Assembly (NCBI GenBank): GCA_027021095.1
Contig: JALUUZ010000135.1
Coordinates: forward strand, 1-14,364
Length of the DNA: 14,364 nucleotides
Origin: Gammaproteobacteria bacterium
GTDB taxonomy: Bacteria > Pseudomonadota > Gammaproteobacteria > SZUA-21
Direction: 5' to 3'
In this document: one piece after another, positions 470-13,979 of the stretch
How positions within the stretch are numbered: the first letter of the stretch is position 1
Layout: each line of letters starts with the position of its first letter
The notes under the pieces: model-generated
The model's input: the letters and a program-made list of their open reading frames with translations, nothing else
The model's database searches: none
Told to the model about the DNA's origin: nothing
Translations under genes and position numbers: made by a program

Positions 470-1662
470 CCTTCAATCCCGGTGTTCTGCAGTTTTTGCG
501 CGCCGGCAGCAAACAAATCCGCGAGGTTGGTCGACAGCACATCCGGGGTGATGTTGATGTGGTCGATCTTTTGCAACTTGCCGGCGATTTCCTGTAGCGC
601 CAGGGCGAATACCACATTGGCTGGCAGTGATTCATAGACAGACATGCGTTCTTTTTCGCCCGCTGCTTCGGCCAGCCCGACCGCTTGTATTTTTTCCGCT
701 TCAGCTTTACCCTCCAGGCGGATTGCATCGGCGTCTGCCGCCGCCAGGCTGCGCCGTACCTGCGCCTTGGTTTCTGCAGCGAGTTTTTGTACATCGCTGT
801 CGGATTGTGACATGATCTGCCTGCGTTCCCGCTCAGCCTCTGCTTCCAGTTTTGCACGGGAAGAAACAGCTTCAGACTGTATCCGTTCCCGTTCGATAAG
901 TGCCTTGACCGAGGCTTCTTCAACGGCGGACTGTTCCTCTACACGCCGGCGCTCATTTCTGCCTTGTTGTGAGATCAGGCTTTCTTCGCGTGCGGCCAGT
1001 TCGATTTTGCTTTGCAATTCATTTTCAGCAATGGCACGTTCTTTTTCGACGGCGAGTGCCCGGCGTTGAAAAGTCGCTTCATCTGCATTCTGCTGGATAC
1101 GCTCTCTAGTCGGAACCTGCAGGGCCTTTTCCAACTCGGCGACCGGGCTTATTTCGTTGATGCCCAGGCTGACGAGCTTCAAGCCCATTTCGGTAAAGAC
1201 GGTTTCACTCTCCATGCCCTGCTCGATGGCGTTGAGAATTTTTTCCGGTCCGTCCGTAATCAGCTGCCGTACTTCTTTGCTTGCGACATAGCGCGCTGCG
1301 TGCTTTTGCACCGTATTGGTGAACAACGCAGCCAGTTGTTCAAGAGGTGCTTTGCGGTGCAACCCGGTATCCAGGTCGATCGAGAAATCGATGCGTTCGG
1401 CCAGGCAGTCCGGGTCGGTGACACGGTAAATGAGCTCACCCTGAACGGTCGCCTCTTGAAAGTCACTCGTACGGCCTTGAAAAATAAATTGTAATTCACG
1501 GTCGTCCGTCGGCACTTCTGCGATACTGGTGCCCATGGAAGCGAACCAGAATGCAAGGCCCTTGCCGGATTTTACCAGGCGGCCATTTCTGAAACGCCGC
1601 ACGTGCATATTCGGCTCACTGCGCAGGTGTTTGAAGAAAAGTGTTTTTTTTATGTCCGTCAT
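466..1662 (-). CDS. SPFH/band-7 (flotillin/stomatin-like) domain protein with a long Glu/Ala/Arg-rich coiled-coil. No N-terminal transmembrane segment.
   Basis: 398-aa ORF. The N-terminal ~180 aa have the SPFH fold signature (HVRRFRNGRLVKSGKGLAFWF...ELIYRVTDP...). The central ~150 aa are heptad-like EA/ER-rich (RALAVEKERAIAENELQSKIELAAREES...AEAERERRQ...). A strong SD, AAGGGAGGGG, lies 5 nt upstream of the ATG at 1662. It is 16 nt downstream of the nadA stop. Confidence 0.75.
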   Translation of the reverse strand: MTDIKKTLFFKHLRSEPNMHVRRFRNGRLVKSGKGLAFWFASMGTSIAEVPTDDRELQFIFQGRTSDFQEATVQGELIYRVTDPDCLAERIDFSIDLDTGLHRKAPLEQLAALFTNTVQKHAARYVASKEVRQLITDGPEKILNAIEQGMESETVFTEMGLKLVSLGINEISPVAELEKALQVPTRERIQQNADEATFQRRALAVEKERAIAENELQSKIELAAREESLISQQGRNERRRVEEQSAVEEASVKALIERERIQSEAVSSRAKLEAEAERERRQIMSQSDSDVQKLAAETKAQVRRSLAAADADAIRLEGKAEAEKIQAVGLAEAAGEKERMSVYESLPANVVFALALQEIAGKLQKIDHINITPDVLSTNLADLFAAGAQKLQNTGIEG

Positions 1663-1678
1663 GTTTGCCCCTCCCTTG

Positions 1679-2611
1679 TCAGGCCGCGTTTTTCGCGGAG
1701 CGTTTTTTGCTGAAGTTCAGCATCCGTTCAATTGGTGCCCGGGCTTTTTCGATCGTTTCATCATCGAGATAGTCGATGACAAAGCCCTTGCCTTGTTGTG
1801 CGCGTACAACCAGGTCGACCGTGTTGCGCTTCATGTACGGGCAGGCATTACACTGACAGCCTGTATAGATCGGTGCCTGACGCAGATTCAGTTCAGGCCG
1901 AAGTTGGCGCATGTTGTGCAGCAAACCTTCTTCAGTCGCGATAAAGAGGGTTGTCGAGTCCGGGTCGCCTTCGAAGTTTTTCACCCAGTCCAGCATCTGC
2001 TTGGTGGAACCGACCATGTCGGCATGCAACAGCACCGGCAGTGGCGACTCGGGGTGTGCCAGCAGGTATGCTGTGCCCTTCGCGTTGGCCTGCTCGATCA
2101 TCCTGTTGATTTGTTCGTGTTTGAATTTATCGTGCACCTCGCAAACCGCGTTCCACACGGGCATGTCGTATCCATACTGGTAATTCAGATAGGCGCCCAT
2201 GTTGCGGTCCGGCGAGAAAATGACTTTTTTACCTTGTGCATAGAGTGCGGCAATAATGTCATCGACGTTGCGGGACGTGACGACCCAGTCTGAAACGGTT
2301 TTGTGTTCCGCGCTCGAATTGATATAACTCACGTGCACGCAGTCGGCATGTCGTTCACGCCACTGTTTCAGTGCGTCGATATCGGTCTGCGTGACCAGCG
2401 AACAGGTGGCGCCCTGGTCTGGCAGGATCACCTGTGCGTGCGGGTTCAGCATTTTGGCGGTTTCTGCCATGAACTGAACCCCGGCAAAAACGATACGGTC
2501 TGCGCGTTCACGTTGTGCGATCAGCGACAGCTCCAGGCTGTCACCGACATAGTCCGCCATCGCCTGCACTTCAGGGACAGTGTAGTAGTGTGCCAATGTC
2601 AGTGTGTTCAT
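1679..2611 (-). CDS. nadA: Quinolinate synthase A (de novo NAD biosynthesis)
   Basis: 310 aa. Clear NadA family similarity throughout (LAHYYTVPEVQAMADYVGDSLELS..., VHVSYINSSAEHK, FSPDRNMG, HPESP, CQCNACPYMK). SD GGAGGTG lies 6 nt upstream of the ATG. It starts 14 nt downstream of the nrtR stop. Confidence 0.9.
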   Translation of the reverse strand: MNTLTLAHYYTVPEVQAMADYVGDSLELSLIAQRERADRIVFAGVQFMAETAKMLNPHAQVILPDQGATCSLVTQTDIDALKQWRERHADCVHVSYINSSAEHKTVSDWVVTSRNVDDIIAALYAQGKKVIFSPDRNMGAYLNYQYGYDMPVWNAVCEVHDKFKHEQINRMIEQANAKGTAYLLAHPESPLPVLLHADMVGSTKQMLDWVKNFEGDPDSTTLFIATEEGLLHNMRQLRPELNLRQAPIYTGCQCNACPYMKRNTVDLVVRAQQGKGFVIDYLDDETIEKARAPIERMLNFSKKRSAKNAA

Positions 2612-2625
2612 GAGACACCTCCTGC

Positions 2626-3291
2626 TTACTTGATTATTTCAACCCTGCCAGGGTCGATGACGCGATAGAGTTTGGCCGGGCGGTGTGCACCCTGCCTTTT
2701 TTCTCTGCCGGTTTCTTCGATCTGTTCCAGCGCCAGTATCCATTTACGAAAGTTCCGGCGGTCGAGTTCTTCGCGAAGAATGATTTCATAGACATCCTGC
2801 AGCTCACTCAAGGTGAATTCCTGCGGCATGAACTGAAACGCAATCGTCGAGTAGTCGAGCTTGGCCACGAGCCGTTTATGGGCCATGGCAACGATCTGCC
2901 GATGATCGAAAGCCAGTTCCGGCAATGTGTCCATGTCAAACCAGTCCACCGCCTCGGCATCCGTTGCGGCCCGCAGCACCATCTGGTCTGAAGCCGCCAA
3001 GGCATAGTAGGCCACTGTTACTACACGCTCGCGCGGGTCGCGGTCGACCGCACCGAATGTGTAGAGCTGTTCGAGGTAAACGCCCTCGATTCCTGTTTCC
3101 TCGGCCAGTTCACGCCGCGCAGAGGATTCCAGGTCCTCGTCTATCTGCATAAATCCGCCGGGCAAGGCCCATGTCCCCTTGAAAGGTTCACTGCCCCGCC
3201 TGACCAGCAATAATTTCAATTGCTTGTCACGGATCGTAAACAGCACGATATCGGTGGTGATGGCAGGGTGTGGAAACTCGTATTGATACAT
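2626..3291 (-). CDS. nrtR: Nudix-related transcriptional regulator of NAD metabolism (NrtR family): N-terminal Nudix-fold ADP-ribose-binding domain plus C-terminal winged helix
   Basis: Nudix box remnants (GTWALPGGFMQIDEDLESSARRELAEETGIEG) followed by the NrtR-type C-terminal domain (LDYSTIAFQFMPQEFTLSELQDVYEIILREELDRRNFRKWI). Sits immediately upstream of nadA in the same operon. I chose the start at 3291 (MYQYEF...) rather than the track's 3324. Reasons: 3291 has the SD AAAGG 7 nt upstream, while the 3324 ATG has no SD and overlaps the predicted -10. Confidence 0.7.
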   Translation of the reverse strand: MYQYEFPHPAITTDIVLFTIRDKQLKLLLVRRGSEPFKGTWALPGGFMQIDEDLESSARRELAEETGIEGVYLEQLYTFGAVDRDPRERVVTVAYYALAASDQMVLRAATDAEAVDWFDMDTLPELAFDHRQIVAMAHKRLVAKLDYSTIAFQFMPQEFTLSELQDVYEIILREELDRRNFRKWILALEQIEETGREKRQGAHRPAKLYRVIDPGRVEIIK

Positions 3292-3313
3292 CGCGCTACC
3301 TTTGCGTACTTGA

Positions 3314-3351
3314 TACACTAACATGATAATGTATTATTTACGCAAAGTCAA
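3314..3351 (-). promoter_or_regulatory. Candidate sigma70 promoter of the nrtR-nadA-SPFH-NADK-like operon. On the minus strand: -35 TTGACT (3351..3346), 17-nt spacer, -10 TATCAT (3328..3323).
   Basis: Read directly from the minus-strand sequence TTGACTTTGCGTAAATAATACATTATCATG. Flanked by the 9-bp inverted repeat CTTTGCGTA / TACGCAAAG (3300-3308 and 3339-3347). Confidence 0.35.
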
Positions 3352-3412
3352 GGCTGCCCGGTGCTCTTGCATGGGTGGCATATAACTTGTTGATATTAAA
3401 TGGATAGCTTGT

Positions 3413-4720
3413 TTACGCGCCCAGGCCGGCCCGGTGCCGTTGAATCAGTATGCCAGCGAGCACGAGCAGGCATGGCAGCAGCAGCGCATAGGCCAGGGTA
3501 AGGAGTGTGATCGTGCTGTCGCTGTAGTGGAAGCCGTGCTGGCTCAGGCGTACCGGGCGGGAGATACCGTTCAGCGCTTCATGGTGGCTGAGCCAGTTGA
3601 AGGCCTGCAGGCCAAGGAAGCGGTTGATCCCGAGTCGCAGGTAGTTGTTGCTGAGAAAATCGCTGTCACCGAACACGATGATGCGCTGTGCAGCGCCTGG
3701 CCCCGGCGCGCGGTTTCGTTGCAGCGCGAGACCGATGGCAAAGGGCCCGGCCCGGGTGCTGTCGTGCTGCTTCAGCCAGTGCGACGCCTGTGTGGAGACG
3801 ATGGTGAAGCTGCGGTAGTTTTTTTTGCGTTCGAGCGTCAGGGCACTGGCGAGAATGAACAGCGCGTCATAGGACTGCAGGTCCTTGCGCGCAAAGATCC
3901 TGGGGCCGAAGCGGCGTGTCTTGATCAGCCATGTCGGTTTGCCGTGGCGGGTTTTTGCCATCAGTATCCCCGGCAGGCGCTGGATGCCGAGTTTACTGGC
4001 CAGTGTCTCCAGCCCGGGCCGTGCTTCCGGGTCCTGCAGCCAGAGCAGGTTGCCGCCGGCCCGCAGGTACCTCAGCAGCAGCGAGATTTCCTGTGCGCTG
4101 AACGCGGTCTTGGGGGCGGCCAGCACCAGGACACTAGTGTTGGCCGGGATGGCCGGCACACGGCGCAGGTCCAGGGTCTGTATCCGCGCATTGCGTTTTT
4201 TCAGTAACGCCGCAAAGGCAGAGTAGCCGCTTTTACTCGTATCGAACGGTGAGCGTTCCTGGTGGCCGGTGGTAAAGACGATCCAGTTGTCTTTGCCGTA
4301 GGCGAGTTGCAGCAGCGTGCTGCCGAACGATTCCTCGTCCAGCACGCGCAGTTTTTTATGCCGTCCCTGGTATTCGATGATCAGTTCCCTGGTTGCGACC
4401 ACACCGTAGCGTAACGCGAACTTGGTATCCTGCATCTGGTCGACGAATTTCAGCTTGATATCCGGTTTGATACGTTGGAAACGGGCGATGAAACGGCTGA
4501 TCTGTTTGCGGACGTCGGCGGCTTTGGGTGCGCCCTGGGCGTTGGAACGGGTGATAAAACCGTAGACCGTGACAGGCGAGTTGAGCGTCGACAGCAGGTC
4601 GACGCTGGCGCGTGACAGCGAATTCTTGTTGCCGGCGCTCAGGTCAAAGGCGAAGAATTCGTAGCGGCTGAACCAGGCGGCGGCCGCCAGCAGTAACAGG
4701 GTGATGAGTCTAGCCTGCAT
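3413..4720 (-). CDS. GldG-like auxiliary component of an ABC-type transport system (COG3225 family). N-terminal signal/anchor and C-terminal TM helix.
   Basis: 435 aa. N-terminal hydrophobic MQARLITLLLLAAAAWF and C-terminal TM LLTLAYALLLPCLLVLAGILI. The large periplasmic body is typical of GldG-like proteins that partner with ABC-2 permeases. Immediately downstream of the ATPase and permease genes. SD AAGGGGG lies 6 nt upstream of the ATG. Confidence 0.65.
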   Translation of the reverse strand: MQARLITLLLLAAAAWFSRYEFFAFDLSAGNKNSLSRASVDLLSTLNSPVTVYGFITRSNAQGAPKAADVRKQISRFIARFQRIKPDIKLKFVDQMQDTKFALRYGVVATRELIIEYQGRHKKLRVLDEESFGSTLLQLAYGKDNWIVFTTGHQERSPFDTSKSGYSAFAALLKKRNARIQTLDLRRVPAIPANTSVLVLAAPKTAFSAQEISLLLRYLRAGGNLLWLQDPEARPGLETLASKLGIQRLPGILMAKTRHGKPTWLIKTRRFGPRIFARKDLQSYDALFILASALTLERKKNYRSFTIVSTQASHWLKQHDSTRAGPFAIGLALQRNRAPGPGAAQRIIVFGDSDFLSNNYLRLGINRFLGLQAFNWLSHHEALNGISRPVRLSQHGFHYSDSTITLLTLAYALLLPCLLVLAGILIQRHRAGLGA

Positions 4721-4731
4721 TGCTCACCCCC
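4710..4731 (-). repeat. Partial repeat copy (terminal 19-21 nt, GGGGTGAGCAATGCAGGCTAG on the minus strand). It provides the gldG-like SD region and ATG.
   Basis: 19-nt perfect identity with 4875-4893 (reverse orientation). 20 of 21 nt identical with the minus-strand copy at 4912..4892. Confidence 0.75.
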
Positions 4732-4845
4732 TTTCTACTGCGACGGCGCCATGGCACGCCCTGGCTGGCTTTCGCTCGGTCGGCGTGCTCGACATAGTGC
4801 CGGCTATGCCTGCGCGCTCCTCGGTCGCGAAAGCCACCCAGGCCG

Positions 4846-4893
4846 CACCCTTGCACCGTCTCGCGACGAACGGTGGTGAGCAATGCAGGCTAG
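4846..4893 (+). repeat. Intergenic repeat copy A (full): CACCCTTGCACCGTCTCGCGACGAACGGTGGTGAGCAATGCAGGCTAG
   Basis: Shares a ≥37-nt core with copies at 12116-12153 and 13861-13910 (reverse), with 2-3 mismatches. A diverged copy lies at 10928-10966. Confidence 0.8.
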
Positions 4894-4910
4894 CCCGCAT
4901 TGCTCACCAC
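4872..4910. repeat. Perfect 14-bp-stem hairpin/palindrome GTGGTGAGCAATGC-aggctagcccg-GCATTGCTCACCAC. It is formed by the end of repeat copy A and an inverted partial copy that encodes the permease C-terminus.
   Basis: Read directly. The loop itself contains the palindrome GGCTAGCC. The permease stop TAG is the CTA at 4890-4892, in the loop. Confidence 0.85.
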
Positions 4911-5657
4911 GCTGCTGCGGCTGAAACGCTGGAAACGCAGCACGGTCAGGTAGAGAAAGAATACCGTGACCAGCACGAAATACAGCAGGTCTACCGAGCT
5001 CCACAGGCCGGCGGTCGGCAGATCGAGATGTCCGAGCAGCGACACGAACTGGATCAGCTGCTCGATCCAACCGACTTTCAGGCTGGCAAAGATCTCGATA
5101 AACACAAAGAAAAGCAGGACAAATGTCGCACTCAGCAGCGCGATGACCGGTTGTGTGGTCAGGCTCGACAGAAACAATGCTATCGCGCAATAGGCCAGTA
5201 CGGCCAATACCGTGCCGGACCAGGCACTGAACACGGTCCCGAGGTCGATATTGCCGCCGGGCATCACCCCGGCCGCTGTCAGCAGCATCAGTGCCAGCAT
5301 ACACAGCAGGAACATCAGCAGGCCGAGGAATTTGCCGAGCACGAGCTGTGTCATGCTGACAGGCTTGGTCAGCAGAAAAAGCAGGCTGCCATTGCGCCGT
5401 TGCAGTGTGACCGACCAGGTGGTCAGCGCCGGTACCAGCAGCAGGACAAAATAGAGCGTCAGCGCGAAAAAGAGTACGATGATTTCATAGGTCGGCCCCT
5501 TGGCGAGCGTCGCGGCGTAGTGCAGTTTGATTTTGTAGACACGCATCAGGAAAAACAGCCCTATGCCCATCGCCAGCTGCACAGCCGCGAGCATAAACCA
5601 GCCCAGCCTGGTTTTGAACAGGGCGCTGAATTCATGCCTGGCGATCCACAGCGTCAC
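4890..5657 (-). CDS. ABC-2 family transporter permease (GldF-like)
   Basis: 255 aa. Six predicted TM segments, ABC-2 permease-like. The GTG start at 5657 overlaps the TGA of the upstream ATPase gene (GTGA). The C-terminal six codons and the TAG stop lie inside the repeat hairpin at 4890-4912. Confidence 0.7.
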   Translation of the reverse strand: MTLWIARHEFSALFKTRLGWFMLAAVQLAMGIGLFFLMRVYKIKLHYAATLAKGPTYEIIVLFFALTLYFVLLLVPALTTWSVTLQRRNGSLLFLLTKPVSMTQLVLGKFLGLLMFLLCMLALMLLTAAGVMPGGNIDLGTVFSAWSGTVLAVLAYCAIALFLSSLTTQPVIALLSATFVLLFFVFIEIFASLKVGWIEQLIQFVSLLGHLDLPTAGLWSSVDLLYFVLVTVFFLYLTVLRFQRFSRSSVVSNAG

Positions 5658-6664
5658 CGCGACTGCCGCCTTTGTGCCGCCGGGGTGCGGGCAGCGGTGC
5701 TGTTGCCGCTGTCGTCTGTGGCCTGCAGTGCCTGGTTTTCAGCGTCAAGCGCCTGTGTGAACAGCTCTTCCAGCGACTGCTGCTGTGGAGTGATTTCGGC
5801 GATGTGCCAGTTGTGCTGGTTGGCCAGCTTGATGATGGCCTGGGTCGTGCTGTTGCGCTGTCGGCAATGGACCAGGTAACTCTGGTCGGGTCGGGCATCC
5901 ACCTCGCTGACGCCGTCGAGTCTGCGCAGCTGCCCGATATCAGGCGGTGTCTCGAACCGGACCTTGAGCAGCTCAGTGCGGGCGTGATTTTGCAGTGCCG
6001 CCGCCGGGCCGTTGTAGACGAGCCTGCCCTGTTTGAGGACTGCCAGGCTGGTGCAGGTCTGCCCGACTTCGGCCAGCAGATGGCTGGACAGGATGATGCC
6101 GCTGGTTTTCCCTAGAGTCTGCAGCAGCTGCCTGATGACTTTGACCTGTAGAGGGTCCAGGCCGTCGGTGGGCTCGTCGAGCAGAATGATGTCAGGCTGG
6201 TGTATGATCGCCTGTGCGAGATTGGCGCGCTGCAGCATCCCCTTGGACAATGAACTGACCAGCCGGTTTCCGAGTTTTTCCAGGCCGCACAGCTGCCTGG
6301 TCTGCTCGAGACGTTCACGCCAGTCTGCCGTCCTTCCGCGGCGGCTGAATCCAAGCGCGTAACGCAGGTTTTCGTCGATGGTCAAAGAGGGATATAAGAC
6401 GTTGCGGTCTGGCTGGTAGCCAATGTGCGCGCGCAGCCTGTGCGTGTCGTGGTGCAGCGGCTGGCCCAGGATTTCGATGCCGCCGGCAGTCGGCCTCAGC
6501 AGGCCACTGAGCAGTTTGAGCAGGCTGCTTTTGCCGGCACCGTTGGGACCGAGCAAGCCCAGTATTTCGCCACGCTGCAACTGCAGGTTGATGTTTTCCA
6601 CGCCCAGCCTGTTGGTATAGTGATAACTCAGGTTGGTGGTTTTGATCAGGATTTCTTCGGTCAT
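5654..6664 (-). CDS. ABC transporter ATP-binding protein (GldA-like)
   Basis: Walker A GPNGAGKSS, ABC signature LSKGMLQRANLA, Walker B IILLDEP, H-loop SSHLL. The track ORF begins at a TTG (6757). I trimmed to the ATG at 6664 (MTEEILIKTTNLSYHY...), which lies just before the conserved N-terminus. Confidence 0.8.
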   Translation of the reverse strand: MTEEILIKTTNLSYHYTNRLGVENINLQLQRGEILGLLGPNGAGKSSLLKLLSGLLRPTAGGIEILGQPLHHDTHRLRAHIGYQPDRNVLYPSLTIDENLRYALGFSRRGRTADWRERLEQTRQLCGLEKLGNRLVSSLSKGMLQRANLAQAIIHQPDIILLDEPTDGLDPLQVKVIRQLLQTLGKTSGIILSSHLLAEVGQTCTSLAVLKQGRLVYNGPAAALQNHARTELLKVRFETPPDIGQLRRLDGVSEVDARPDQSYLVHCRQRNSTTQAIIKLANQHNWHIAEITPQQQSLEELFTQALDAENQALQATDDSGNSTAARTPAAQRRQSR

Positions 6665-6774
6665 GGACCAGGTATCAATCAGTTTGTTCTTTTTTTTTGC
6701 AGCATGATTCGGGCCAGATTGGACGGCGCCAGGGTTTGGCGGAATAAAAACCCGCAATTTGGTAAGATTGTGTA

Positions 6775-8748
6775 ATGAAGTTGCTTGGTGTCGATACCGG
6801 TGGAACCTTTACGGACTTTGTGTACTACGATGGCCGGCGGCTGCGCCTGCACAAGACCCTGTCGACGCCGCATGCGCCGGAACAGGCCATCTTACAGGGG
6901 TTGACCGACCTGCAGTTGAACCTCGAAGACCTGGATATCGTGCACGGTTCGACAGTAGTGACCAATGCAGTGCTGGAAAGGAAGGGAGTCAGGACCGTCT
7001 ATATTACCAACCAGGGGTTTGCTGACCTGCTGACCATCGGCCGCCAGGCCCGGCGCCGGTTGTATGCGCTGCAGCCGCAGGCTGACGAGCCGCCGGTCGC
7101 GGCGGAGCTTTGTCTCGAGACCGGGGGCAGGCTGGGCGCAGACGGCAGCGTACTGCAACCGCTCGAGCCACACCAGCTCGATACCCTGCGCCGGCAGGTC
7201 GAGCAGCTGGCGCCGGCTGCCGTGGCGATCAACCTGCTGTTTTCCTATCTCGACGATCGTTTCGAAAGGCAGATCGAAGAAGTGATGCCGGACTCTGTGT
7301 TTGTTTCACGTTCTTCACAGGTACTGGCTGAAATGGGTGAGTATGAGCGTGGCATCGTGACCTGGCTCAATGCCTGGATAGGGCCGTTGGCACAGCAGTA
7401 CCTGCAGCGCCTGGAGCAGCAGGTTGCACCGGCACGCCTGACCGTGATGCAAAGCCATGGCGGCACCATGGCCGCCAGCCAGGCCGGTCGGCATGCGGTC
7501 GGTATGTTGTTGTCCGGCCCGGCCGGCGGCTTGAAAGGCGCCCAGTATATCGCCGGCCTGAGCGGCAGGACGAGACTGCTGACACTGGACATGGGCGGAA
7601 CCTCGACGGATGTCGCGCTGATCGATGGCGACATCAGCCTGACCACCGAGGGTGGTATCGACCGTTACCCGGTCGCGGTGCCGATGGTCGACATGCATAC
7701 CATCGGCGCCGGAGGGGGCTCGATCGCACGGGTCGATGCCGGGGGGCTGCTGCAGGTGGGTCCGGAATCTGCAGGCGCCGCCCCGGGACCTGCCTGCTAT
7801 GGCAGGGGAGGTGAACAGCCGACGGTGACCGATGCCAACCTGGTGCTCGGCCGTATTCCGGCAGACCGGTTTCTTGGTGGACGGATGAGCCTGGACCCGG
7901 CCGCAGCGGAGGCCGCCGTCGGCCGCCTGGCCGCACAGCTTGGTGTCAGCCGCCTGGAGTGTGCCGAGGGTATCGTGCGTGTCGCCAATGAGCACATGAG
8001 TGGTGCATTGCGCAAGATCAGTGTCGAACGCGGCATCGATCCGCGGGGGTTTACACTGGTCTCATTTGGCGGCGCCGGTGGTCTGCATGTGTGTGCACTG
8101 GCGCAATCGCTCGAGATAGGAAAGATACTGATACCCCGCTATGCCGGGGTGTTGTCAGCGCTGGGGATGCTGGTGGCGCCACGTTCGAGGCAGCTGTCAC
8201 GTACGCTCAACACAAGACTTGAAACCGCTGACACCGATACGATCGAGGCGGTGTACGCGGCGCTGATCCGTTCCGGCACAGCAGAACTCCTGGCAGAGGG
8301 CATCGCGCGTGAGGAGCTGCAGATACAGCGGCTCGCGGACCTGCGCTATCTCGGGCAATCTTATTGCCTGACCCTGCCGTGGCAGCAACCGGCGGCGCTG
8401 GCGGACAGTTTTCACCAGGCGCATCAGCAGCGTTATGGGCATGATCTGGATGAGCCGGTCGAGTTGGCGACACTGCGCGTCAGCCTGTTTGCCAGGCCGC
8501 GCCCCTTGGTGCTGGACGAACCTGGCGGGCACGGTATACAGCCACCGTCTTCGTTACCTCCATCGGCAAGCGGAGGCCTTGTACACTACCTGCGGGATCG
8601 GCTTAAACCGGGTGAAAGACTGACAGCACCGGCGCTGGTGATCGAATCGGTGGCGACCACCTATCTGGCCGAGGGCTGGGAGGGCTTTTGCGATGCGGAT
8701 GGCAACCTGTTGCTGCACAGGAAAAGTACCGCGGGATGCGCCGATTGA
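6775..8748 (+). CDS. hyuA: Hydantoinase A / N-methylhydantoinase A / 5-oxoprolinase A-subunit family protein (ATP-dependent). A standalone gene. No partner hyuB-like gene was found in this window.
   Basis: 657 aa. N-terminal MKLLGVDTGGTFTDFV (hydantoinase/oxoprolinase N-terminal domain). Central ASKHA-like glycine-rich motifs (LDMGGTSTDVALI, GAGGGSIARVDAGG). Family-typical length. SD GGTAAG lies 8 nt upstream. Confidence 0.85.
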   Translation: MKLLGVDTGGTFTDFVYYDGRRLRLHKTLSTPHAPEQAILQGLTDLQLNLEDLDIVHGSTVVTNAVLERKGVRTVYITNQGFADLLTIGRQARRRLYALQPQADEPPVAAELCLETGGRLGADGSVLQPLEPHQLDTLRRQVEQLAPAAVAINLLFSYLDDRFERQIEEVMPDSVFVSRSSQVLAEMGEYERGIVTWLNAWIGPLAQQYLQRLEQQVAPARLTVMQSHGGTMAASQAGRHAVGMLLSGPAGGLKGAQYIAGLSGRTRLLTLDMGGTSTDVALIDGDISLTTEGGIDRYPVAVPMVDMHTIGAGGGSIARVDAGGLLQVGPESAGAAPGPACYGRGGEQPTVTDANLVLGRIPADRFLGGRMSLDPAAAEAAVGRLAAQLGVSRLECAEGIVRVANEHMSGALRKISVERGIDPRGFTLVSFGGAGGLHVCALAQSLEIGKILIPRYAGVLSALGMLVAPRSRQLSRTLNTRLETADTDTIEAVYAALIRSGTAELLAEGIAREELQIQRLADLRYLGQSYCLTLPWQQPAALADSFHQAHQQRYGHDLDEPVELATLRVSLFARPRPLVLDEPGGHGIQPPSSLPPSASGGLVHYLRDRLKPGERLTAPALVIESVATTYLAEGWEGFCDADGNLLLHRKSTAGCAD

Positions 8749-8909
8749 GTACAAGCGGAAAAGCCAGGCTGGGCCGGTGTGCCGGGTGAGTGTATCTGTT
8801 AAGATATCGCTAACCAAGTCAGCCCCGATCCGCTATACTTTGCGGACCAAAATAGGAGTATTTTCCCTACAGTTTTAGTGGGAGATTTTTCTCTGGACCC
8901 TTGGCAGTG

Positions 8910-8949
8910 AATACTATAGTATTGCCAGCAATATGATGGTTTTTATAAC
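8910..8949 (+). promoter_or_regulatory. Candidate desaturase promoter (-35 TTGCCA 8922-8927, -10 TATAAC 8944-8949). A perfect 14-bp palindrome AATACTATAGTATT (8910-8923) overlaps the -35.
   Basis: Read directly from sequence. The palindrome is perfect. The region is AT-rich and lies 35-75 nt upstream of the desA ATG. Confidence 0.35.
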
Positions 8950-8983
8950 CCCTTGAAAGATAAAGAAGATATAGGCCCTCCGT

Positions 8984-10192
8984 ATGATAGATTCAATATT
9001 GGACTTTTTGCATAACGGCCTTACTGGTTTCAGTATTGGCGCAATGTTTATTACCGCTTTGATCGCGGTGCAGTTTACGATTTTCTGTGTGACGCTGTTC
9101 CTGCACAGGTGTCAGGCGCACAGAGGCATAGAATTTCATCCTGTGTTGGCCCATATCGTGCGATTCTGGTTATGGATTGCAACCGGGATGATCACCAAAG
9201 AGTGGGTGGCGATTCACCGTAAACACCATGCGACCTGCGAGACCAAGGAGGACCCGCACAGCCCGAAGATCTATGGCATCCGCAAGATTCTGCTCGAAGG
9301 CTCCGAGCTCTATCGCAAGGCCGCCAAAGACCAGGAACTGCTCGAGCGGTACGGCCACGGCACGCCGGACGACTGGATCGAACGCCATGTGTATACCAGG
9401 CATCGTATTCTCGGCGTGATCCTGATGATGTTTGCCAGTATTGCTGCATTCGGTGTCCTCGGTCTGACTTTCTGGGCCTTTATGATGATCTGGATTCCGT
9501 TCTGGGCGGCCGGTATGATCAACGGCACCGCGCACTATGTCGGTTACCGTAATTTCGAGACGCCGGACACCTCGACCAATCTGTATCCGCTGGCGATCTG
9601 GATCGGTGGGGAGGAGCTGCATAACAATCACCATTCCTTTCCGAGTTCGGCGAAGTTTTCGATCAAATGGTGGGAGTTCGATATCGGCTGGTTGTACATC
9701 CGTGTGCTTGGTTTTTTCGGCCTGATCAAGGTCAAGAAGGTCGCGCCCAAGGTCTATATCGATTCCGGCAAGGATTCGATCGATATGGAGACGATCAAGG
9801 CGATCGTCGTCAACCGGGTCAATGTGATGGCCGACTATGCGCGGCAGGTGATTACGCCGATGGTCAAGAAATCATGGCGCGAAATGCCTTCAGCGGCCAA
9901 TTTCAGTGTACGCAAGGTCAAGTCATTGCTGGTACGCGAGCACAGCATGATGGACCCAAGCTCTGAAAAGGCATTGAACGTAGTGCTGAGCGACAACCAG
10001 AGCCTGAAAACCATCTACAATTTCCGCATCCAGCTGCAACAGATCTGGGACCGGGCGGCGGCCAGTCACGAAACACTGGTCCAGGCATTGAAAGACTGGT
10101 GTGTACAGGCCGAGGCAACCGGGATCAAAGCGTTGCAGGACTTTGCACGCAGCCTGCATGGTTATACACGCGCTGTACCGACAAGCGTTTGA
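8984..10192 (+). CDS. desA: Membrane acyl-lipid/acyl-CoA delta-9-type fatty acid desaturase, with a ~150-aa C-terminal extension
   Basis: Three His boxes in canonical spacing (HRCQAHR, HRKHHA, HNNHH). Hydrophobic segments flank them. The overall 402-aa architecture resembles Pseudomonas-type DesA. Confidence 0.85.
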   Translation: MIDSILDFLHNGLTGFSIGAMFITALIAVQFTIFCVTLFLHRCQAHRGIEFHPVLAHIVRFWLWIATGMITKEWVAIHRKHHATCETKEDPHSPKIYGIRKILLEGSELYRKAAKDQELLERYGHGTPDDWIERHVYTRHRILGVILMMFASIAAFGVLGLTFWAFMMIWIPFWAAGMINGTAHYVGYRNFETPDTSTNLYPLAIWIGGEELHNNHHSFPSSAKFSIKWWEFDIGWLYIRVLGFFGLIKVKKVAPKVYIDSGKDSIDMETIKAIVVNRVNVMADYARQVITPMVKKSWREMPSAANFSVRKVKSLLVREHSMMDPSSEKALNVVLSDNQSLKTIYNFRIQLQQIWDRAAASHETLVQALKDWCVQAEATGIKALQDFARSLHGYTRAVPTSV

Positions 10193-10240
10193 TCGCATGC
10201 TGGCGGTTCACGGAGGAACCGTTTGCTATCACCAATAAAA

Positions 10241-10272
10241 AACCCGGCATCGTCATGATGCCGGGTTTTTTT
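10241..10272. terminator. Bidirectional rho-independent terminator shared by desA (+) and rpmG (-)
   Basis: AACCCGGCATC-gtcat-GATGCCGGGTT is a perfect 11-bp stem. It is preceded by A6 and followed by T7, so it can function on either strand. Confidence 0.65.
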
Positions 10273-10295
10273 GTTTGGGCTGCCTTGCGTGTTCG

Positions 10296-10466
10296 TTACT
10301 TGATCTTGGCTTCTTTGTAAGCCACGTGCTTACGGACCACCGGGTCGTATTTCCTGACTTCCATCTTTTCCGGGTGGGTACGCTTGTTTTTACTAGTGGT
10401 ATAGAAGTGCCCGGTTCCGGCAGAAGAAACCAGCCTGATCTTGTCGCGCTTGCTTTTACCAGCCAT
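10296..10466 (-). CDS. rpmG: 50S ribosomal protein L33 (56 aa). Absent from the ORF track because it is under 60 aa.
   Basis: Translation [56 protein letters not shown] is near-identical in pattern to E. coli L33. The SD AGGA is upstream. Confidence 0.9.
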
Positions 10467-10511
10467 TGCTCTGTTCCTGTAGTTCGTTGTAAACCTGTGT
10501 GCTCAAAAAGT

Positions 10512-10748
10512 TCAGACCCGGACGCCGCGTTTGCGTATCTCGCTCAGTACCTGGTCGATGCCTTTTTTGTCGATAATCCGTAAGCCTTTTGACGACAGGC
10601 GCAGTTTGACCCATCGCTTTTCGCTTTCGACCCAGATTCGATGGGTCTGCAGATTCGGCAGGAAGCGTCGCTTGGTTTTATTGTTGGCATGTGAGACATT
10701 GTTGCCTGACATCGGACGTTTGCCTGTTACCTGACATACTCTGGACAT
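10512..10748 (-). CDS. rpmB: 50S ribosomal protein L28
   Basis: [34 protein letters not shown]...[14 protein letters not shown] has high identity to E. coli L28. Confidence 0.95.
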
Positions 10749-10801
10749 TGTACTCGCCTTCTAGTATTTGAATCCTGATACATTATAAAACAAAGCGGGT
10801 G

Positions 10802-10830
10802 ATTTTACCTGCCCATTGTCCGAGATGCAA
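10802..10830 (-). promoter_or_regulatory. Candidate rpmBG promoter on the minus strand: -35 TTGCAT (10830..10825), 17 nt, -10 TAAAAT (10807..10802)
   Basis: Minus-strand sequence TTGCATctcggacaatgggcaggTAAAAT lies about 55 nt upstream of the rpmB ATG. Confidence 0.4.
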
Positions 10831-10927
10831 GCAGCACCATGTAACTCATTGTTTCTTGGTAGATAGCACCTGATCTCATACCTTTTTACTCCATTCATAA
10901 CGAGGCCGCGCAAAGGCATGCCTTCAC

Positions 10928-10966
10928 GCGGTCTCGCTGCGAACAGTAGCGAGCAGTGCGGGCTAG
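10928..10966 (+). repeat. Intergenic repeat copy D (diverged, ~29/39 identity to copy A). It ends in GGGCTAG, whose CTA is the stop codon (minus strand) of the His-rich lipoprotein gene.
   Basis: GCGGTCTCGCTGCGAACAGTAGCGAGCAGTGCGGGCTAG versus ACCGTCTCGCGACGAACGGTGGTGAGCAATGCAGGCTAG. Followed by the palindrome AAGGCATGCCTT hairpin at 10903-10930. Confidence 0.55.
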
Positions 10967-11178
10967 TGGACGTCGGAGTGGACGTCGTCCTCGACGTACT
11001 CCACCGGGCCGTCGACATGGCCATAGTGGTCGTATCCGGAATGATGGCCGGTGTTGTGGCTGTTATGGCCCGAGGAATTGTTGTGACCGTGGCTGCTCCG
11101 GGTTTGCGAATGGCCTTCACATCCGGCCAGGCCGACGCTGGCAGCGGCAATCAGTGAAATCATCAGAATCTTTTTCAT
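10963..11178 (-). CDS. Small secreted His-rich lipoprotein (71 aa). Signal peptide plus lipobox LAGC. The mature ~51 aa contains 13 His and an acidic tail. Putative periplasmic metal-binding protein.
   Basis: MKKILMISLIAAASVGLAGC|EGHSQTRSSHGHNNSSGHNSHNTGHHSGYDHYGHVDGPVEYVEDDVHSDVH. Strong SD AAGGGAGA lies 5 nt upstream of the ATG at 11178. The track's longer 88-aa version starts at an upstream codon that has no SD. The TAG stop is the CTAG end of repeat copy D. Confidence 0.6.
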   Translation of the reverse strand: MKKILMISLIAAASVGLAGCEGHSQTRSSHGHNNSSGHNSHNTGHHSGYDHYGHVDGPVEYVEDDVHSDVH

Positions 11179-11337
11179 TGGTTCTCCCTTTTTTGGTTGG
11201 CTGTTGTAAAAAGTCAATACCTGACTCATCCTGATGATATAGGATGGCGAATTTCAGGGGTGATGTCCATAGAAAATCACCAAATGACTGTGAATCTTAA
11301 CGTACTCTTTGCATTTTTGGTCTTGTATAAAAATTAA

Positions 11338-12012
11338 TCAAAGCAGTCCACGCTCGGCGAACGACACCAACTCACCATCGCCAATCACAAAATGGTCGAG
11401 CACCGAGACATCCACGACTTCCAGGGTGGACTTGAGCGTAACCGTCAAAGTCCGGTCGGCCTGGCTGGGTTCGGGAATGCCCGAAGGGTGGTTGTGTGCC
11501 AGGATAACGGCCGCCGCATTGTGGTGCAGACAGCGTTTGACCAGTTCCCGCGGGTGGACGCTGGCGCCGTTGATCGTGCCGAAAAACATTTTCTCGAAGG
11601 TAATGAGTCGATAGCGGTTGTCGAGAAAGAGACAGGCAAAGATTTCCTGTTCGCAGTCTCTAAGCTCCGCCAGCAGGTAGTCTTTGCAATAGCGCGGATT
11701 GTTCAGTGTGCGCCCACGCTGCAGCTTCTCGCGTTGCTGGCGCAGATTCATCTCCATCACCGCCTGCAACAGCGCATACTTGGCGCTGCCGAGTCCGGGA
11801 ATCCGCCTGAAGTCATTGTATTTGGCCGTCAGGATATTACGCAGCCCGCCATAGCGGGAGAGCAGTTCACGTGCCAGGTCCAGCGCCGATTTGCCCTTGC
11901 TGCCGGTGCCAAGAAGAATCGCCAGCAGTTCCGAATCACTCAATGCGCTGGCACCCAGTGCCAGGAGTTTTTCCCGTGGCCGCTCCTGTTCCGGCCAGTC
12001 TTTGATGCTCAT
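11338..12012 (-). CDS. radC: RadC/YicR-family JAB-domain protein (UPF0758)
   Basis: 224 aa. N-terminal helix-hairpin-helix-like region ([27 protein letters not shown]). C-terminal JAMM motif (HNHPSG...S..D). Shows the conserved gammaproteobacterial synteny: next to rpmBG and divergent from coaBC-dut. Confidence 0.85.
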
Positions 12013-12115
12013 GCAGCAAAGCTAACCTGAGTCGGCGTGGTGCGGCAAGCCTTGCAGCTTGTTGATTCTACGAGTTGCCTGCTGTGTCCGGTTTACGGTG
12101 CCGGCCCCGTCCCCG

Positions 12116-12153
12116 CCGTCTCGCGACGAACGGTGGTGAGAAATGCGGGCTGG
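12116..12153 (+). repeat. Intergenic repeat copy B: CCGTCTCGCGACGAACGGTGGTGAGAAATGCGGGCTGG. It lies 30 nt upstream of the coaBC ATG.
   Basis: 26-nt perfect match to copy A, then 8 of 10 matching. Confidence 0.8.
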
Positions 12154-12183
12154 CGTCGGCATAATATCTGTTACAATCGGCGT

Positions 12184-13410
12184 ATGAAACAGCTGTCTGG
12201 CAAAAGAGTGTTGTTGGGAGTCTGTGGCAGCATTGCAGCCTATAAAAGTGCAGAGCTTGTCAGAGACCTGCGTGATGCCGGTGCCGAAGTCCGGGTAGTG
12301 ATGACCGAGGCCGCGACAGAGTTCATTACGCCATTGACACTGCAGGCATTGTCCGGTCACCCTGTACGTACCGGCTTGGTCGATACCGCCGCAGAGGCGG
12401 CGATGGGACACATCGAACTTGCGCGCTGGCCTGATGCCGTGTTGGTGGCGCCCGCCAGTGCGGATTTCATTGCCCGGCTGGCACAGGGCAGGGCGGATGA
12501 TCTGCTGGCCGCGTTGTGCCTGGCGACACGGGCACCGGTCGCTTTGGCCCCGGCGATGAATGCGGGGATGTGGGAGAATGCAGCAACCCGTGCAAACATC
12601 GATAAGCTGACCCGCCAGGGTGTGGCCTTTTTTGGCCCGGTTTCCGGTGCACTCGCTTGTGGTGAGCAGGGGCCGGGAAGAATGATCGATAATCGAACGA
12701 TTATCGACAAGCTGGCAGCGCTGTTTCCTTCCGCTGCGTTACAGGGGGTTGCAGTGCTGGTTTCCGCCGGGCCGACACGCGAGGCGATCGATCCGGTCAG
12801 GTATCTGAGTAACCGCAGTTCGGGTAAGATGGGTTTCGCGGTTGCCGCCGCCGCGGTCGAGGCCGGTGCGCAGGTGACACTGATCAGCGGCCCGGTTGCG
12901 TTGCCGACCCCGGAACGGGTAAAGAGAGTGGATGTCATCAGTGCTGCGCAGATGTATCGAGCGGTCATGGAGCATGCGCCGGCTCACCAGATATTTGTTG
13001 CGGCGGCGGCAGTGGCTGATTTCGTCCCGCAGGCGTTTGCACAACAGAAACTGAAAAAAGAAAAATTTTCGGCAGAGGACGGATTTGTACTCAGGCTGAA
13101 ACAGAGTCCGGATATCCTTGCCGAACTGGCCGGACGCGAGCAACGGCCTTTTCTGGTTGGTTTTGCAGCAGAGACGGAGTCGGTGGAGCAAAACGGGTGT
13201 GCCAAGCTGCAGCGCAAAAAGCTGGATATGATTGCGATCAACGATGTCAGCGAAGGCCGCGGTTTCGACCGGGATGAAAATGAATTATTGGTCTTGTGGC
13301 CAGGTGGGCGAGCGCGGCTGGAACTGGCCGGCAAGGGCAGGCTGGCACGTGAGCTGATGGGGTTGATCGCTGACAGGTACCGGGAGCACTATGAAAAAAA
13401 TACAACTTAA
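12184..13410 (+). CDS. coaBC: Bifunctional phosphopantothenoylcysteine decarboxylase / phosphopantothenate-cysteine ligase
   Basis: [44 protein letters not shown]... aligns with the E. coli Dfp N-terminus. It is 408 aa from the ATG at 12184. The track's 12037 GTG start would add 49 residues with no homology and would run through a repeat copy. Confidence 0.9.
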
Positions 13411-13846
13411 GCTGCTGAATGACAAAATCGGCAATGAAATACCCTTGCCGGACTATGCTACCGATGGTTCAGCTGGAATGGATCTGCGTGCCTGCCTGGA
13501 CGGTCCGGTGACGATTGCGCCAGGCGAGACCCGGCTCATTCCCACCGGCATCGCAATCCACCTGGATGACCCGGGTATGGCGGCGACGATCCTGCCGAGG
13601 TCCGGCCTGGGGCACAAGCATGGGATCGTGCTGGGTAACCTGGTCGGCCTGATCGATTCCGACTATCAAGGTGAGCTTTTTATCTCGTGTTGGAATCGTG
13701 GCAAAACGGCATATACTATCGAGGTGGGTGATCGAATTGCGCAACTGGTCATAGTGCCGGTCGTCAGGGCGGAGTTTGAGCTGGTGCAGGCGTTCGATGC
13801 CAGTGCGCGCGGCAGCGGAGGCTTTGGTCACACGGGACGCACTTGA
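13391..13846 (+). CDS. dut: dUTP diphosphatase
   Basis: 151 aa with typical dUTPase motifs ([38 protein letters not shown]). It overlaps the coaBC 3' end by 20 nt, as in E. coli. Confidence 0.92.
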
Positions 13847-13875
13847 AGCCAGGTGTTTGCCTGGCCCGGATTTCT
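13847..13875 (+). terminator. Probable dut terminator: GCCAGG-tgtttg-CCTGGC followed by ccggaTTTCTT
   Basis: 6-bp GC stem directly after the TGA, followed by a T-rich tract. It is immediately followed by repeat copy C. Confidence 0.4.
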
Positions 13876-13910
13876 TACCACCGTTCGTCGCGAGACGGAG
13901 CAAGGGTGTG
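13861..13910 (-). repeat. Intergenic repeat copy C (reverse orientation): CACACCCTTGCTCCGTCTCGCGACGAACGGTGGTAAGAAATCCGGGCCAG
   Basis: Includes the CACCCTTGC extension also seen in copy A. Lies immediately after the dut terminator hairpin. Confidence 0.8.
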
Positions 13911-13979
13911 GGCTATCAGTGATGGAGCCTCCAAGGCTTCGCAATGAGACTTTTGGGTTGTCAGCTTTGGTAGGATCGA

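Follow-up and report, generated by a model that had tools for sequence, protein, structure and literature searches.

Here, we report that the window, i.e., the whole stretch of 14,364 nt analysed, probably carries a non-autonomous transposable element of the MITE type, present as a single intact copy together with at least four end-fragments in decay (Table 1). The canonical length in this family is 184 nt. It is apparently an undescribed member of a well-known class of bacterial MITEs, similar to ERIC and Correia elements. The bacterial MITEs tabulated by Delihas measure approximately 100-200 bp and exhibit terminal inverted repeats, 5'-TA-3' termini, stem-loops formed by pairing of the 5' and 3' ends, and ORF fusions (PMC2229807). 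In these characters, our element matches the class.

An earlier note on this DNA had described four copies of a 40-50 nt intergenic repeat at 4846-4893 (+), 12116-12153 (+), 13861-13910 (-) and, in diverged form, at 10928-10966 (+), which we refer to as copies A, B, C and D. All four are present at these positions. The 25-mer core CCGTCTCGCGACGAACGGTGGTGAG matches exactly at 4856-4880 (+) and 12116-12140 (+) and with one mismatch at 13874-13898 (-). Three occurrences in the window, plus the diverged fourth copy, stand against zero expected by chance; none of 200 dinucleotide-preserving shuffles contained any match. Pairwise over 39 nt, copies B and D are 92% and 77% identical to A, respectively, while copy C is 85% complementary to A over 54 nt and 94% complementary to B over 35 nt. 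The 5' extension CACCCTTGC common to A and C is likewise real, and the general assignment to small dispersed intergenic repeats of the REP/ERIC/RPE kind was borne out. The unit size, however, was misjudged. The short pieces represent the terminal inverted repeat with the adjoining subterminal block of a palindromic, MITE-like element of 184 nt, and copy A is not a 48-nt unit but the right arm of the element at 4710-4893. What had been noted as the core corresponds to the right-hand 38 nt, i.e., the right subterminal block together with the right terminal repeat.

Table 1. Copies and fragments of the element in the window and further along the same contig. E-values were obtained with the 184-nt nhmmer profile.
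Feature	Position	Strand	Evidence
Intact 184-nt palindromic element	4710..4893	+	nhmmer full-length, E=6.7e-56; aligned with 184-nt copies of other genomes
Left-end fragment of second copy, 21-31 nt	4890..4920	+	nhmmer profile positions 1-31, E=0.006
Copy D, old diverged right-end stub	10913..10966	+	profile positions 131-184, E=5.8e-4; 77% to A
Copy B, 38-nt right-end stub	12115..12153	+	profile positions 146-182, E=2.7e-9
Copy C, 57-nt right-end stub	13861..13917	-	profile positions 128-184, E=3e-10
Further left-end fragment	L011 19776-19835 (same contig, 6 kb beyond the window)		nhmmer profile

The element is an imperfect palindrome over its entire length. It is bounded by near-perfect 22-nt terminal inverted repeats, (Y)TAGCCCGCATTTCTCACCACC ... 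GGTGGTGAGAAATGCGGGCTA(R), which are 97.4% paired (19 scored pairs, 35 copies) and continue imperfectly to approximately 37 nt. Beside these repeats lie conserved, non-complementary subterminal blocks, the left one being CTTCTACTGCGACGG and the right one CCGTCTCGCKACGAAC. The outer limit of conservation is sharp at YTAR, and the bases beyond are random. Among the ends listed, more than 95% carry the TA that is found at both termini; of 167 ends, 126 have C and 34 have T at the outermost position, and the two outermost bases do not covary. In the intact copy of the window, the terminal inverted repeats comprise 19-22 nt, CTAGCCTGCATTGCTCACC ... GGTGAGCAATGCAGGCTAG.

Folding of this copy yields a rod-like hairpin of -109.6 kcal/mol on the plus strand and -121.6 kcal/mol on the minus strand (z = -8.6 and -11.2, respectively). 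Across 35 full copies, 95.2% of the cells in the hairpin are paired and 21 out of 46 pairs exhibit compensatory double changes. None of 500 shuffles attains these values, and slid controls are 34-44% paired. The 22-nt end is not self-complementary; the palindrome exists only as the whole element. The near-palindrome described within the core forms an asymmetric internal loop in the large hairpin and has no structure of its own. Nor is the palindrome TCGCGA a feature of the family: CGCGAC occurs in only about 10 of the 35 full copies, and most show CGCTAC.

The family is widespread in uncultured marine Gammaproteobacteria. Copies of approximately 90% identity, nearly always 183-185 nt long, were found in MAGs labelled Lysobacterales, Halieaceae, Thiotrichales and "Gammaproteobacteria PMV_4.23", with 9 loci in 5 MAGs carrying the element; the idea of a repeat specific to one lineage fails on these near-identical copies. 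Multi-copy dispersal, in turn, was confirmed by a search of metagenomes with the terminal-repeat pattern, which returned at least 120 contigs with the element next to unrelated genes. The highest local density is 5 copies in 12.5 kb (L075), and hundreds of copies genome-wide are plausible for the source organism. Among the matches listed, 42 of the 83 paired elements measure 183-185 nt and the remainder 55-368 nt with unchanged ends. This size range, with its mode of 184 nt, stays below the approximately 400 bp typical of MITEs and, together with the lack of a transposase gene, agrees with this class. Of the unpaired ends listed, 56 out of 92 are situated at contig ends, which indicates that assemblies break at a repeat. 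No protein family recurs beside the elements among the fetched loci, and the elements have no coding capacity.

Copies A, C and D directly abut a gene terminus, as had been claimed for every copy, but B does not: it is located 30 nt upstream of the coaBC ATG (12184) in the divergent radC/coaBC promoter region, with the radC start at 12012. On the minus strand, the end of the intact element contains the called ATG (4718-4720) of a GldG-like gene (3413-4720) together with the preceding Shine-Dalgarno-like GGGGGTGAG. The adjoining left-end fragment shares CTAG with the intact element and carries the inverted repeat I18 (19 nt, 95% complementary). Its minus strand encodes the final six codons and the stop (VVSNAG*, TAG 4890-4892) of an ABC-2 permease gene (4890-5657), whose C-terminus departs from its homologues exactly at this point. 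Likewise, a His-rich 71-aa ORF (10963-11178) upstream of rpmB has its TAG stop (10963-10965, minus strand) within the terminal CTAG of copy D. In copies B and C the terminal CTAG is mutated to CTGG. The dut stop (13846) and an algC-like start (13980) are separated by a spacer with approximately 100 nt of additional sequence, in which copy C is situated, and copy B contains a weak -35-like GTGAGA that, judged by consensus match only, may pair with CATAAT at 12160-12165.

Comparison with relatives revealed filled and empty sites. In the nearest relative genome, GCA_054014035.1 (CoaBC and permease 80% and 82% identical to those of the window), sites A and C are empty, as is the site of the L011 fragment; the site A orthologue lacks the element in the relatives L136 and L138. 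The permease/gldG spacer comprises 12 nt in GCA_054014035.1 vs. 170 nt in the window. Insertion at site A was accompanied by replacement of approximately 60 nt of the native junction, and the site is rearranged. The dut/algC spacer measures 32 nt in this relative (L135) vs. 133 nt in the window. At the site of copy B, L135 shows unrelated sequence over approximately 45 nt between conserved flanks, and at that of copy D a similarly decayed remnant ending in ...ATGCAGGCTAG, such that D is common to both genomes. A search for the element in 31 kb of the relative and in a more distant homologue locus found no copy. A half empty site is given by CGCTAC-TAA-AAGT in L135 vs. CGCTAC-TAG-CCCGCATTT in L011, where the TA of the stop codon is present in both and the element starts at G; a clean two-sided empty site was not obtained among the relative loci compared. 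The retention of D at an orthologous site where it overlaps a stop codon, and the overlap of B with a weak promoter-like match for coaBC, could also be read as conserved operators or parts of flanking genes with no repeat family behind them. We regard this reading as hardly credible, as the same sequence lies beside unrelated genes in at least 120 contigs, and the relative lacks B and C in its orthologous spacers but conserves the promoter and coding blocks around them. In accordance with the earlier note, there is no resemblance to tRNA or attC-like models, and no Rfam family matches either. No Rfam 15 covariance model matched at E<=1 in overlap with copies A or C, and copies B and D gave sub-threshold hits only (SNORA57, 23.8 bits at a gathering cutoff of 40; RT-19, 22.5 bits at 78.3).

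The ends coincide with stop codons. At 44 out of 168 ends listed (26%), an ORF with 100 or more open codons ends exactly at the terminal TAR, compared with 4 and 17 in the other two frames. There is no orientation bias in this coincidence (20 left and 21 right ends). We infer that a transposase encoded elsewhere binds the approximately 37-bp ends and puts the element into TA within YTAR, presumably with duplication of the TA, in a reaction that would resemble that of IS630/Tc1 or the IS427 group of IS5. Pyrimidine-preceded TAA and TAG stops would then serve as target sites, and the first base of the element, G, would regenerate TAG, such that copies come to lie flush against gene ends in either orientation. 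The inserted element would be co-transcribed and fold as a long hairpin. Subsequent deletions and insertions at the hairpin tip may produce the size classes of 58, 66, 95, 158 and more than 200 nt, and solo ends of the kind seen in B, C and D may likewise result from deletions. An autonomous IS with matching ends was not found in approximately 0.7 Mb of fetched loci, in PLSDB plasmids or in IMG/VR.

The approximately 90% identity across orders, the nearly invariant length and the compensatory changes exceed the needs of a purely selfish element and thus leave room for selection on function. We consider it unlikely that the element is primarily a structured RNA or DNA element selected by the host and not currently mobile, which might, e.g., stabilise 3'-UTRs, be processed by RNase III/E, or act as a pause site or terminator in both directions. 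Function would then conserve its sequence and shape, as reportedly argued for ERIC. The strong covariation at an almost fixed length of 184 nt, a fold that is very stable on both strands and the failure to find a transposase partner in the loci, plasmids and viral contigs searched would all suit such a role, as would the position directly after stop codons and inside operons, from which it follows that the element must be transcribed. Yet the orientation relative to the flanking genes is unbiased, no U-tract terminator signature is found at the copies, and arm-to-arm templated repair can also yield covariation in a DNA palindrome. Moreover, copies are freely lost, truncated and decayed, as stubs B, C and D and a relative living without copies at the same loci demonstrate, and TA-ending terminal inverted repeats with a range of deletion derivatives are the signature of a transposon. 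In an equally doubtful proposal, the ends form a portable gene-boundary module: each end would offer an in-frame-capable TAG on either strand when read inwards and a Shine-Dalgarno-like GGTGGTGAG with an ATG 2-3 nt later when read outwards, and the 22-bp stem would pair the stop region of the upstream gene with the start region of the downstream gene, the whole acting as a translational-coupling and mRNA-processing device under selection. A ribosome terminating on the upstream gene might then melt the 22-bp basal stem and expose the downstream start. Selection as such a module would explain the near-fixed length, the compensatory changes and the identity across orders.

It is quite improbable that the element is REP/REPIN-like and owes its mobility or maintenance to a RAYT (Y1/HUH tyrosine transposase), a link proposed in the earlier note. 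A 321-aa protein with Y1_Tnp and Bac_DnaA_C domains is encoded in the window's own metagenome sample (L143 530-1495; 99% identical to L121). Some sources name its homologues "REP element-mobilizing transposase RayT", and its gene stops at the TAG with which a second intact 184-nt element ends. In most copies, a GTAG tetranucleotide is found 4 nt inside each terminal repeat (the window's right arm shows GTCG instead), and solo and paired forms both exist, similar to REP singlets and REPINs. However, the element flanks the Y1 gene on one side only, and this adjacency is expected anyway from the preference for stop codons (26% of ends abut a stop). The relative's orthologue shares the DUF4149-Y1-ptsP context, and no element lies in its vicinity. 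Members of this clade show a degenerate HUH motif (EFH or SIH vs. HYH elsewhere in the family), the score for NCBIfam REP_Tyr_transpos reaches 38.6 vs. a cutoff of 80, and two more distant members (L144, L145) are flanked by different inverted motifs of their own, GGGGTCAA/TTGACCCC, with no element detected. Finally, REP units are short imperfect palindromes (20-40 nt) with GTAG/CTAC conserved at the foot, and a RAYT gene has intact HUH and Tyr motifs and repeats on its flanks; the 22-nt terminal repeat itself is no palindromic REP unit. The RayT-like gene is probably unrelated to the element it abuts.

The element resembles ERIC/IRU (RU-1; Enterobacteria, Vibrio), which are likewise imperfect palindromes throughout their length (100-200 nt), carry TA at their termini and occupy transcribed intergenic sites in either orientation, with shorter and longer variants by internal deletion or insertion and high conservation across genera; neither has a known transposase (PMC2229807). 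ERIC differs in its length (127 vs. 184 nt) and terminal repeats (approximately 7 vs. 22 nt). Our element, unlike ERIC, resides in uncultured marine and sediment Gammaproteobacteria, and its stop-codon coincidence has been quantified. A blastn search (word size 11, E<=1e-3) gave no match in 5,426 complete genomes of E. coli, in which ERIC, REP/BIME and RU-3 are present. Some of the ERIC features are reportedly described in Hulton 1991 and Wilson & Sharp 2006.

The Correia/NEMIS elements of Neisseria are also MITEs, with approximately 24-bp terminal repeats, TA termini and internal-deletion size variants; they are co-transcribed with their neighbours and form long hairpins, which are RNase III substrates in Neisseria (PMC2229807). 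Our element, in contrast, is unrelated in sequence, has neither an IHF-site variant nor a TATA-type outward promoter, and forms a GC-rich rod in a much wider range of hosts. The IS630-derived MITEs RUP (Streptococcus pneumoniae) and Nezha (cyanobacteria) have terminal repeats and TA-containing targets and are presumably moved in trans, the model we infer here (RUP: PMC2229807). For RUP, the parental IS630-Spn1 with matching terminal repeats is known, whereas no parent of our element was found in loci, plasmids and viral contigs. REP/BIME and REPIN-RAYT systems share abundant intergenic palindromic repeats just downstream of genes and singlet and doublet forms; our unit, however, contains no self-complementary REP of 20-40 nt and has true terminal inverted repeats finishing in TA. 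Palindromes that become part of coding sequence are known from RPE (Rickettsia) and the enterobacterial RU-2/RU-3 (YPAL) (PMC2229807), and our element similarly contributes the stop and the six preceding codons to one gene and, to its neighbour, the called start with the first codons. Whereas RPEs insert in frame within genes, our element is found at gene boundaries, where its terminal CTAG is a stop on both strands.

Stubs and hairpins of this family create artefactual gene starts and ends in annotation, e.g., the called coaBC comprises 457 aa and begins upstream of copy B. The element also breaks metagenome assemblies: the Logan contig L012 spans exactly from copy B to the dut stop before copy C. 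From a biological point of view, the family is a clean case of a MITE landing on stop codons that can be absorbed into operon junctions with neither gene destroyed. Its conservation across orders without a visible transposase repeats, in another group of bacteria, the long-standing puzzle of ERIC, which the many metagenomic copies make amenable to comparative tests.

The four short repeats described in the earlier note lie exactly where it placed them. Their 25-mer core occurs without mismatch at 4856-4880 (+) and 12116-12140 (+) and with one mismatch at 13874-13898 (-), and none of 200 dinucleotide-preserving shuffles held any match. Over 39 nt, the repeat finder aligned copies B and D to copy A with 92% and 77% identity, respectively; copies A and C share 85% over 54 nt, and B and C 94% over 35 nt. 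Two inverted pairs had been missed: 4710-4735 is the reverse complement of copy A's end (pair I4), and an inverted copy at 4892-4910 adjoins copy A directly (pair I18). In the alignment, sequence conservation runs far 5' of the proposed core, up to an inverted second copy of the terminal sequence. Alignment and profile thus replace the proposed unit of 40-50 nt by a 184-nt element with two inverted ends. Its left end reads CTAGCCCGCATTTCTCACCACC-CTTCTACTGCGACGG... and its right end ...CCGTCTCGCKACGAAC-GGTGGTGAGAAATGCGGGCTAG, with the terminal strings TAGCCCGCATTTCTCACCACC and GGTGGTGAGAAATGCGGGCTA. Seven of eight complete copies measure exactly 184 nt, at a mean column identity of 89%.

Copies B, C and D as well as the fragment beside copy A match only part of the profile, and hence the former core represents the right terminal inverted repeat plus the adjoining subterminal block. 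Copy A belongs to a recent, nearly intact copy, while the other three, B, C and D, represent solo ends in decay. A metagenome contig of 53.9 kb, ERZ27262676:k141_177585, contains the window. In the remaining readable contig (20 kb), no other element sequence was found beyond one left-end fragment in the part named L011. All features are collected in the table; genes follow Pfam and the contig gene calls.

Element copies, genes of the window and related loci
Feature	Location	Strand	Remark
Intact element (includes copy A, 4846-4893)	4710-4893	+	nhmmer E=6.7e-56
Copy B	12116-12153	+	profile positions 146-182 only
Copy C	13861-13910 (profile match 13861-13917)	-	profile positions 128-184 only
Copy D	10928-10966 (profile match 10913-10966)	+	profile positions 131-184 only
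Left-end fragment	4890-4920		profile positions 1-31
Left-end fragment outside window	L011 19776-19835		profile search
MAGs carrying the element	JAKEGK01 (PMV_4.23), JBFJNB01, JBFGYD01, DTYI01
SPFH domain protein	466-1662	-
NadA	1679-2611	-
NrtR	2626-3324	-
GldG-like ABC auxiliary protein	3413-4720	-
ABC-2 permease	4890-5657	-
ABC ATPase	5654-6757	-
Hydantoinase	6775-8748	+
Desaturase-like ORF	8984-10192	+
rpmG, rpmB	10296-10748	-
71-aa ORF	10963-11178	-
radC	11338-12012	-
coaBC	ATG 12184, to 13410	+
dut	13391-13846	+
algC-like	from 13980	+
Y1_Tnp + DnaA C-terminal HTH gene	L143 530-1495; L121 5268-6230; L139 4001-4969

On either strand the element folds into a rod hairpin (-109.6 and -121.6 kcal/mol; z = -8.6 and -11.2). 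Among 35 full copies, standard pairs fill 95.2% of the pair cells and compensatory double changes occur at 21 of 46 pairs, values matched by none of 500 shuffles; slid controls were 34-44% paired. On the '+' strand we count 89 G·U against 31 A·C cells, but two fixed pairs account for 50 of the G·U cells, and, against this excess, the better fold of the window copy is that of the minus strand. The near-palindrome CCGTCTCGCGACGAACGG that had been noticed in the core turns out to be an asymmetric internal loop of the whole rod, and the hexamer TCGCGA is not a general feature, being present in only ~10 of the 35 full copies. Promoter and terminator scans at the copies gave chance-level consensus matches only.

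One genome per GTDB species was scanned with an exact 20-mer, which returned nine true matches in five MAGs, plus one chance-like match. Two of these MAGs are labelled Lysobacterales and the others Halieaceae, Thiotrichales and 'Gammaproteobacteria PMV_4.23', which speaks against an element specific to one lineage. A degenerate terminal-repeat pattern matched at least 120 metagenome contigs. Among the matches listed, 42 of 83 two-ended elements are 183-185 nt long; the others, with the same ends throughout, fall into classes of 58, 66, 95 and 158 nt with a tail to 368 nt. In the 58-nt form only the 22-bp terminal stem is present, with GTCTCGCTACGAAC as its closing loop, and the remaining classes represent hairpin-tip deletions or nested palindromic insertions. 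Solo right ends of ~50-58 nt that start near CCGCACCCTTG, exactly like copy C, recur in other contigs. Unpaired ends often have a contig end no more than 260 nt away (56 of 92 among the matches listed), so assemblies evidently break at the element. An independent assembly of the same organism (Logan contig L012 from SRR8439019, 1723 nt) runs from inside copy B to the dut stop before copy C; that this unitig breaks at the repeats is indirect evidence for identical 31-mers elsewhere in that sample.

An Rfam E-value scan of the window gave no match at copies A and C, and only sub-threshold ones at D (SNORA57, 10847-10950) and B (RT-19, 12052-12137); the remaining weak matches fall on a terminator hairpin. 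This hairpin (10234-10287, AAAAAACCCGGCATC...GATGCCGGGTTTTTT), perfect and bidirectional, separates the desaturase-like ORF from the convergent rpmG and resembles Thr_leader and sX11 below threshold on both strands. Neither PLSDB plasmids, queried with the consensus, nor E. coli genomes, queried with the window copy, gave a blastn match; a terminal-repeat scan of IMG/VR and a full-text literature search with 15-nt strings of the element likewise returned nothing. The MITEs reported from Thiomargarita differ from our family by their TATA termini and 10-bp direct repeat. A second palindromic repeat of ~165 nt, unrelated to the element (TTAAGGAACCTCTGATTAATTC...GAATTAATCAGAGGTTCCTTAA; L097 682-847), surfaced in flank-joining blastn. 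It is abundant in the same marine-sediment contigs, likewise at contig ends (also L038, L044, L048, L064, L068, L088, L091, L116, L118, L119, L122 and L133).

Copy A is placed within the ABC operon (3413-6757), B in the divergent radC/coaBC spacer, C between dut and algC, and D where the 71-aa ORF ends. Within the protein database, GCA_054014035.1 is the nearest genome; it is syntenic (CoaBC 80%, permease 82% identity). In this relative the permease/gldG spacer at site A measures 12 nt versus 170 nt in the window (8 nt in a homologue locus with 64% identity), and the dut/algC spacer at site C 32 nt versus 133 nt. Its site B carries ~45 nt of unrelated sequence with conserved flanks on both sides, and its site D holds in the identical place a decayed remnant of its own, ending ...ATGCAGGCTAG, which dates the family back to the common ancestor. 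A search of 31 kb, made up of loci L135-L137 of the relative and of L138, a more distant homologue locus, detected no element. The L011 fragment provides a half empty site: CGCTAC-TAA-AAGT in the relative versus CGCTAC-TAG-CCCGCATTT in the window genome, so that the stop-codon TA is common to both and the G is the element's first base. Blastn with joined flanks gave no empty site among the loci, and the comparisons yielded none that is clean on both sides.

At site A, ~60 nt of native junction are missing, which held the last permease codons and stop, the ribosome-binding site, and the gldG start with its first ~12 codons. The permease now ends ...RFSRSS-VVSNAG*, with six codons and TAG from a 21-nt left-end fragment. 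Judging by the gene call, the GldG-like ORF would start at MQAR..., its putative ATG lying within the terminal repeat and preceded by AAGGGGGTGAGCA. Both ORF lengths stay near normal (255 aa vs 252; 435 aa vs 441).

The relative has fpg directly after the GldG-like gene (L136 7384-7423); the window genome has ~3.9 kb extra between them (window ~300-3400; L013 8251-12196), comprising NrtR, NadA, the SPFH protein and a 320-aa ORF, and no element fragments were detected at the borders of this region. Within the single 402-aa desaturase-like ORF, a fatty-acid desaturase domain (residues 22-233) is followed by a match (residues 285-396, E=3.7e-11) to the DDE domain of the ISL3 transposase; since the relative has the same architecture (L136 752-1960), the fusion is conserved rather than a recent IS scar. 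coaBC was called as 457 aa from GTG 12037, reading through copy B. The alignment with the relative and with homologues of ~400-413 aa indicates ATG 12184, right after the conserved ATATCTGTTACAATC block, as the probable real start.

Conserved in the relative (L135 144-362), the 71-aa ORF has a signal-peptide-like N-terminus and a His/Gly-rich tail, and in both genomes the terminal CTAG of decayed copy D forms its TAG stop. Such coincidence is frequent: among the matches listed, an ORF open for at least 100 codons ends exactly at the terminal TAR in 44 of 168 ends, compared with 4 and 17 in the other two frames. Left and right ends contribute equally (20 and 21), and eight elements have convergent stops on both sides. 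Conservation stops abruptly at the outermost base: of 167 ends among the matches listed, 126 have C there and 34 have T. Further outward the bases are random, and no covariation links the two outermost bases within an element. This fits an insertion at the TA of YTAR, the end motif of the terminal inverted repeats, in which the TA would be duplicated in the manner of IS630/Tc1-type elements. After insertion, the first G of the element would then restore a TAG stop.

The enzyme acting in trans would probably be a DDE transposase of the IS630 or IS5/IS427 type. Where left and right ends lie far apart (L056, L062), they enclose housekeeping genes and no transposases. All-against-all clustering of the 2,273 ORFs from the loci yielded no element-linked protein family; only ABC ATPases, GGDEF proteins and acyl-CoA ligases recur. 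The earlier note had pointed to a RAYT, the Y1/HUH tyrosine transposase of REP/REPIN systems. A 321-aa Y1_Tnp+Bac_DnaA_C protein, whose homologues some sources call 'RayT', indeed terminates where a second intact element has its terminal TAG (L121, and L143 from the window's own sample). A functional tie is nevertheless unlikely: the relative's ortholog has the same DUF4149-Y1-ptsP context and no element, this Y1 clade has lost the first HUH histidine (EFH or SIH, versus HYH elsewhere in the family), and two more distant members (L144, L145) have flanking inverted GGGGTCAA/TTGACCCC motifs of their own, with no element detected. The adjacency is thus regarded as another stop-codon insertion, and the degenerate HUH motif (EFH) suggests a domesticated, presumably non-catalytic protein.

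From the earlier interpretation, a small, dispersed and mobile repeat therefore stands, whereas unit size, lineage specificity and the RAYT link do not. The element fits the bacterial MITE class described by Delihas, whose members measure ~100-200 bp, carry terminal inverted repeats and TA termini, form end-to-end stem-loops and fuse to adjacent ORFs (PMC2229807). Nearest to it in behaviour are ERIC/IRU, with its whole-length palindrome, discrete size variants, cross-genus conservation and no known transposase, and Correia/NEMIS; the element is unrelated in sequence to both. Given the fixed length of the element, its compensatory changes and an identity of ~90% across orders, retention of the hairpin for a host function stays a minority possibility. 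When transcribed, the hairpin may affect mRNA stability or translational coupling.
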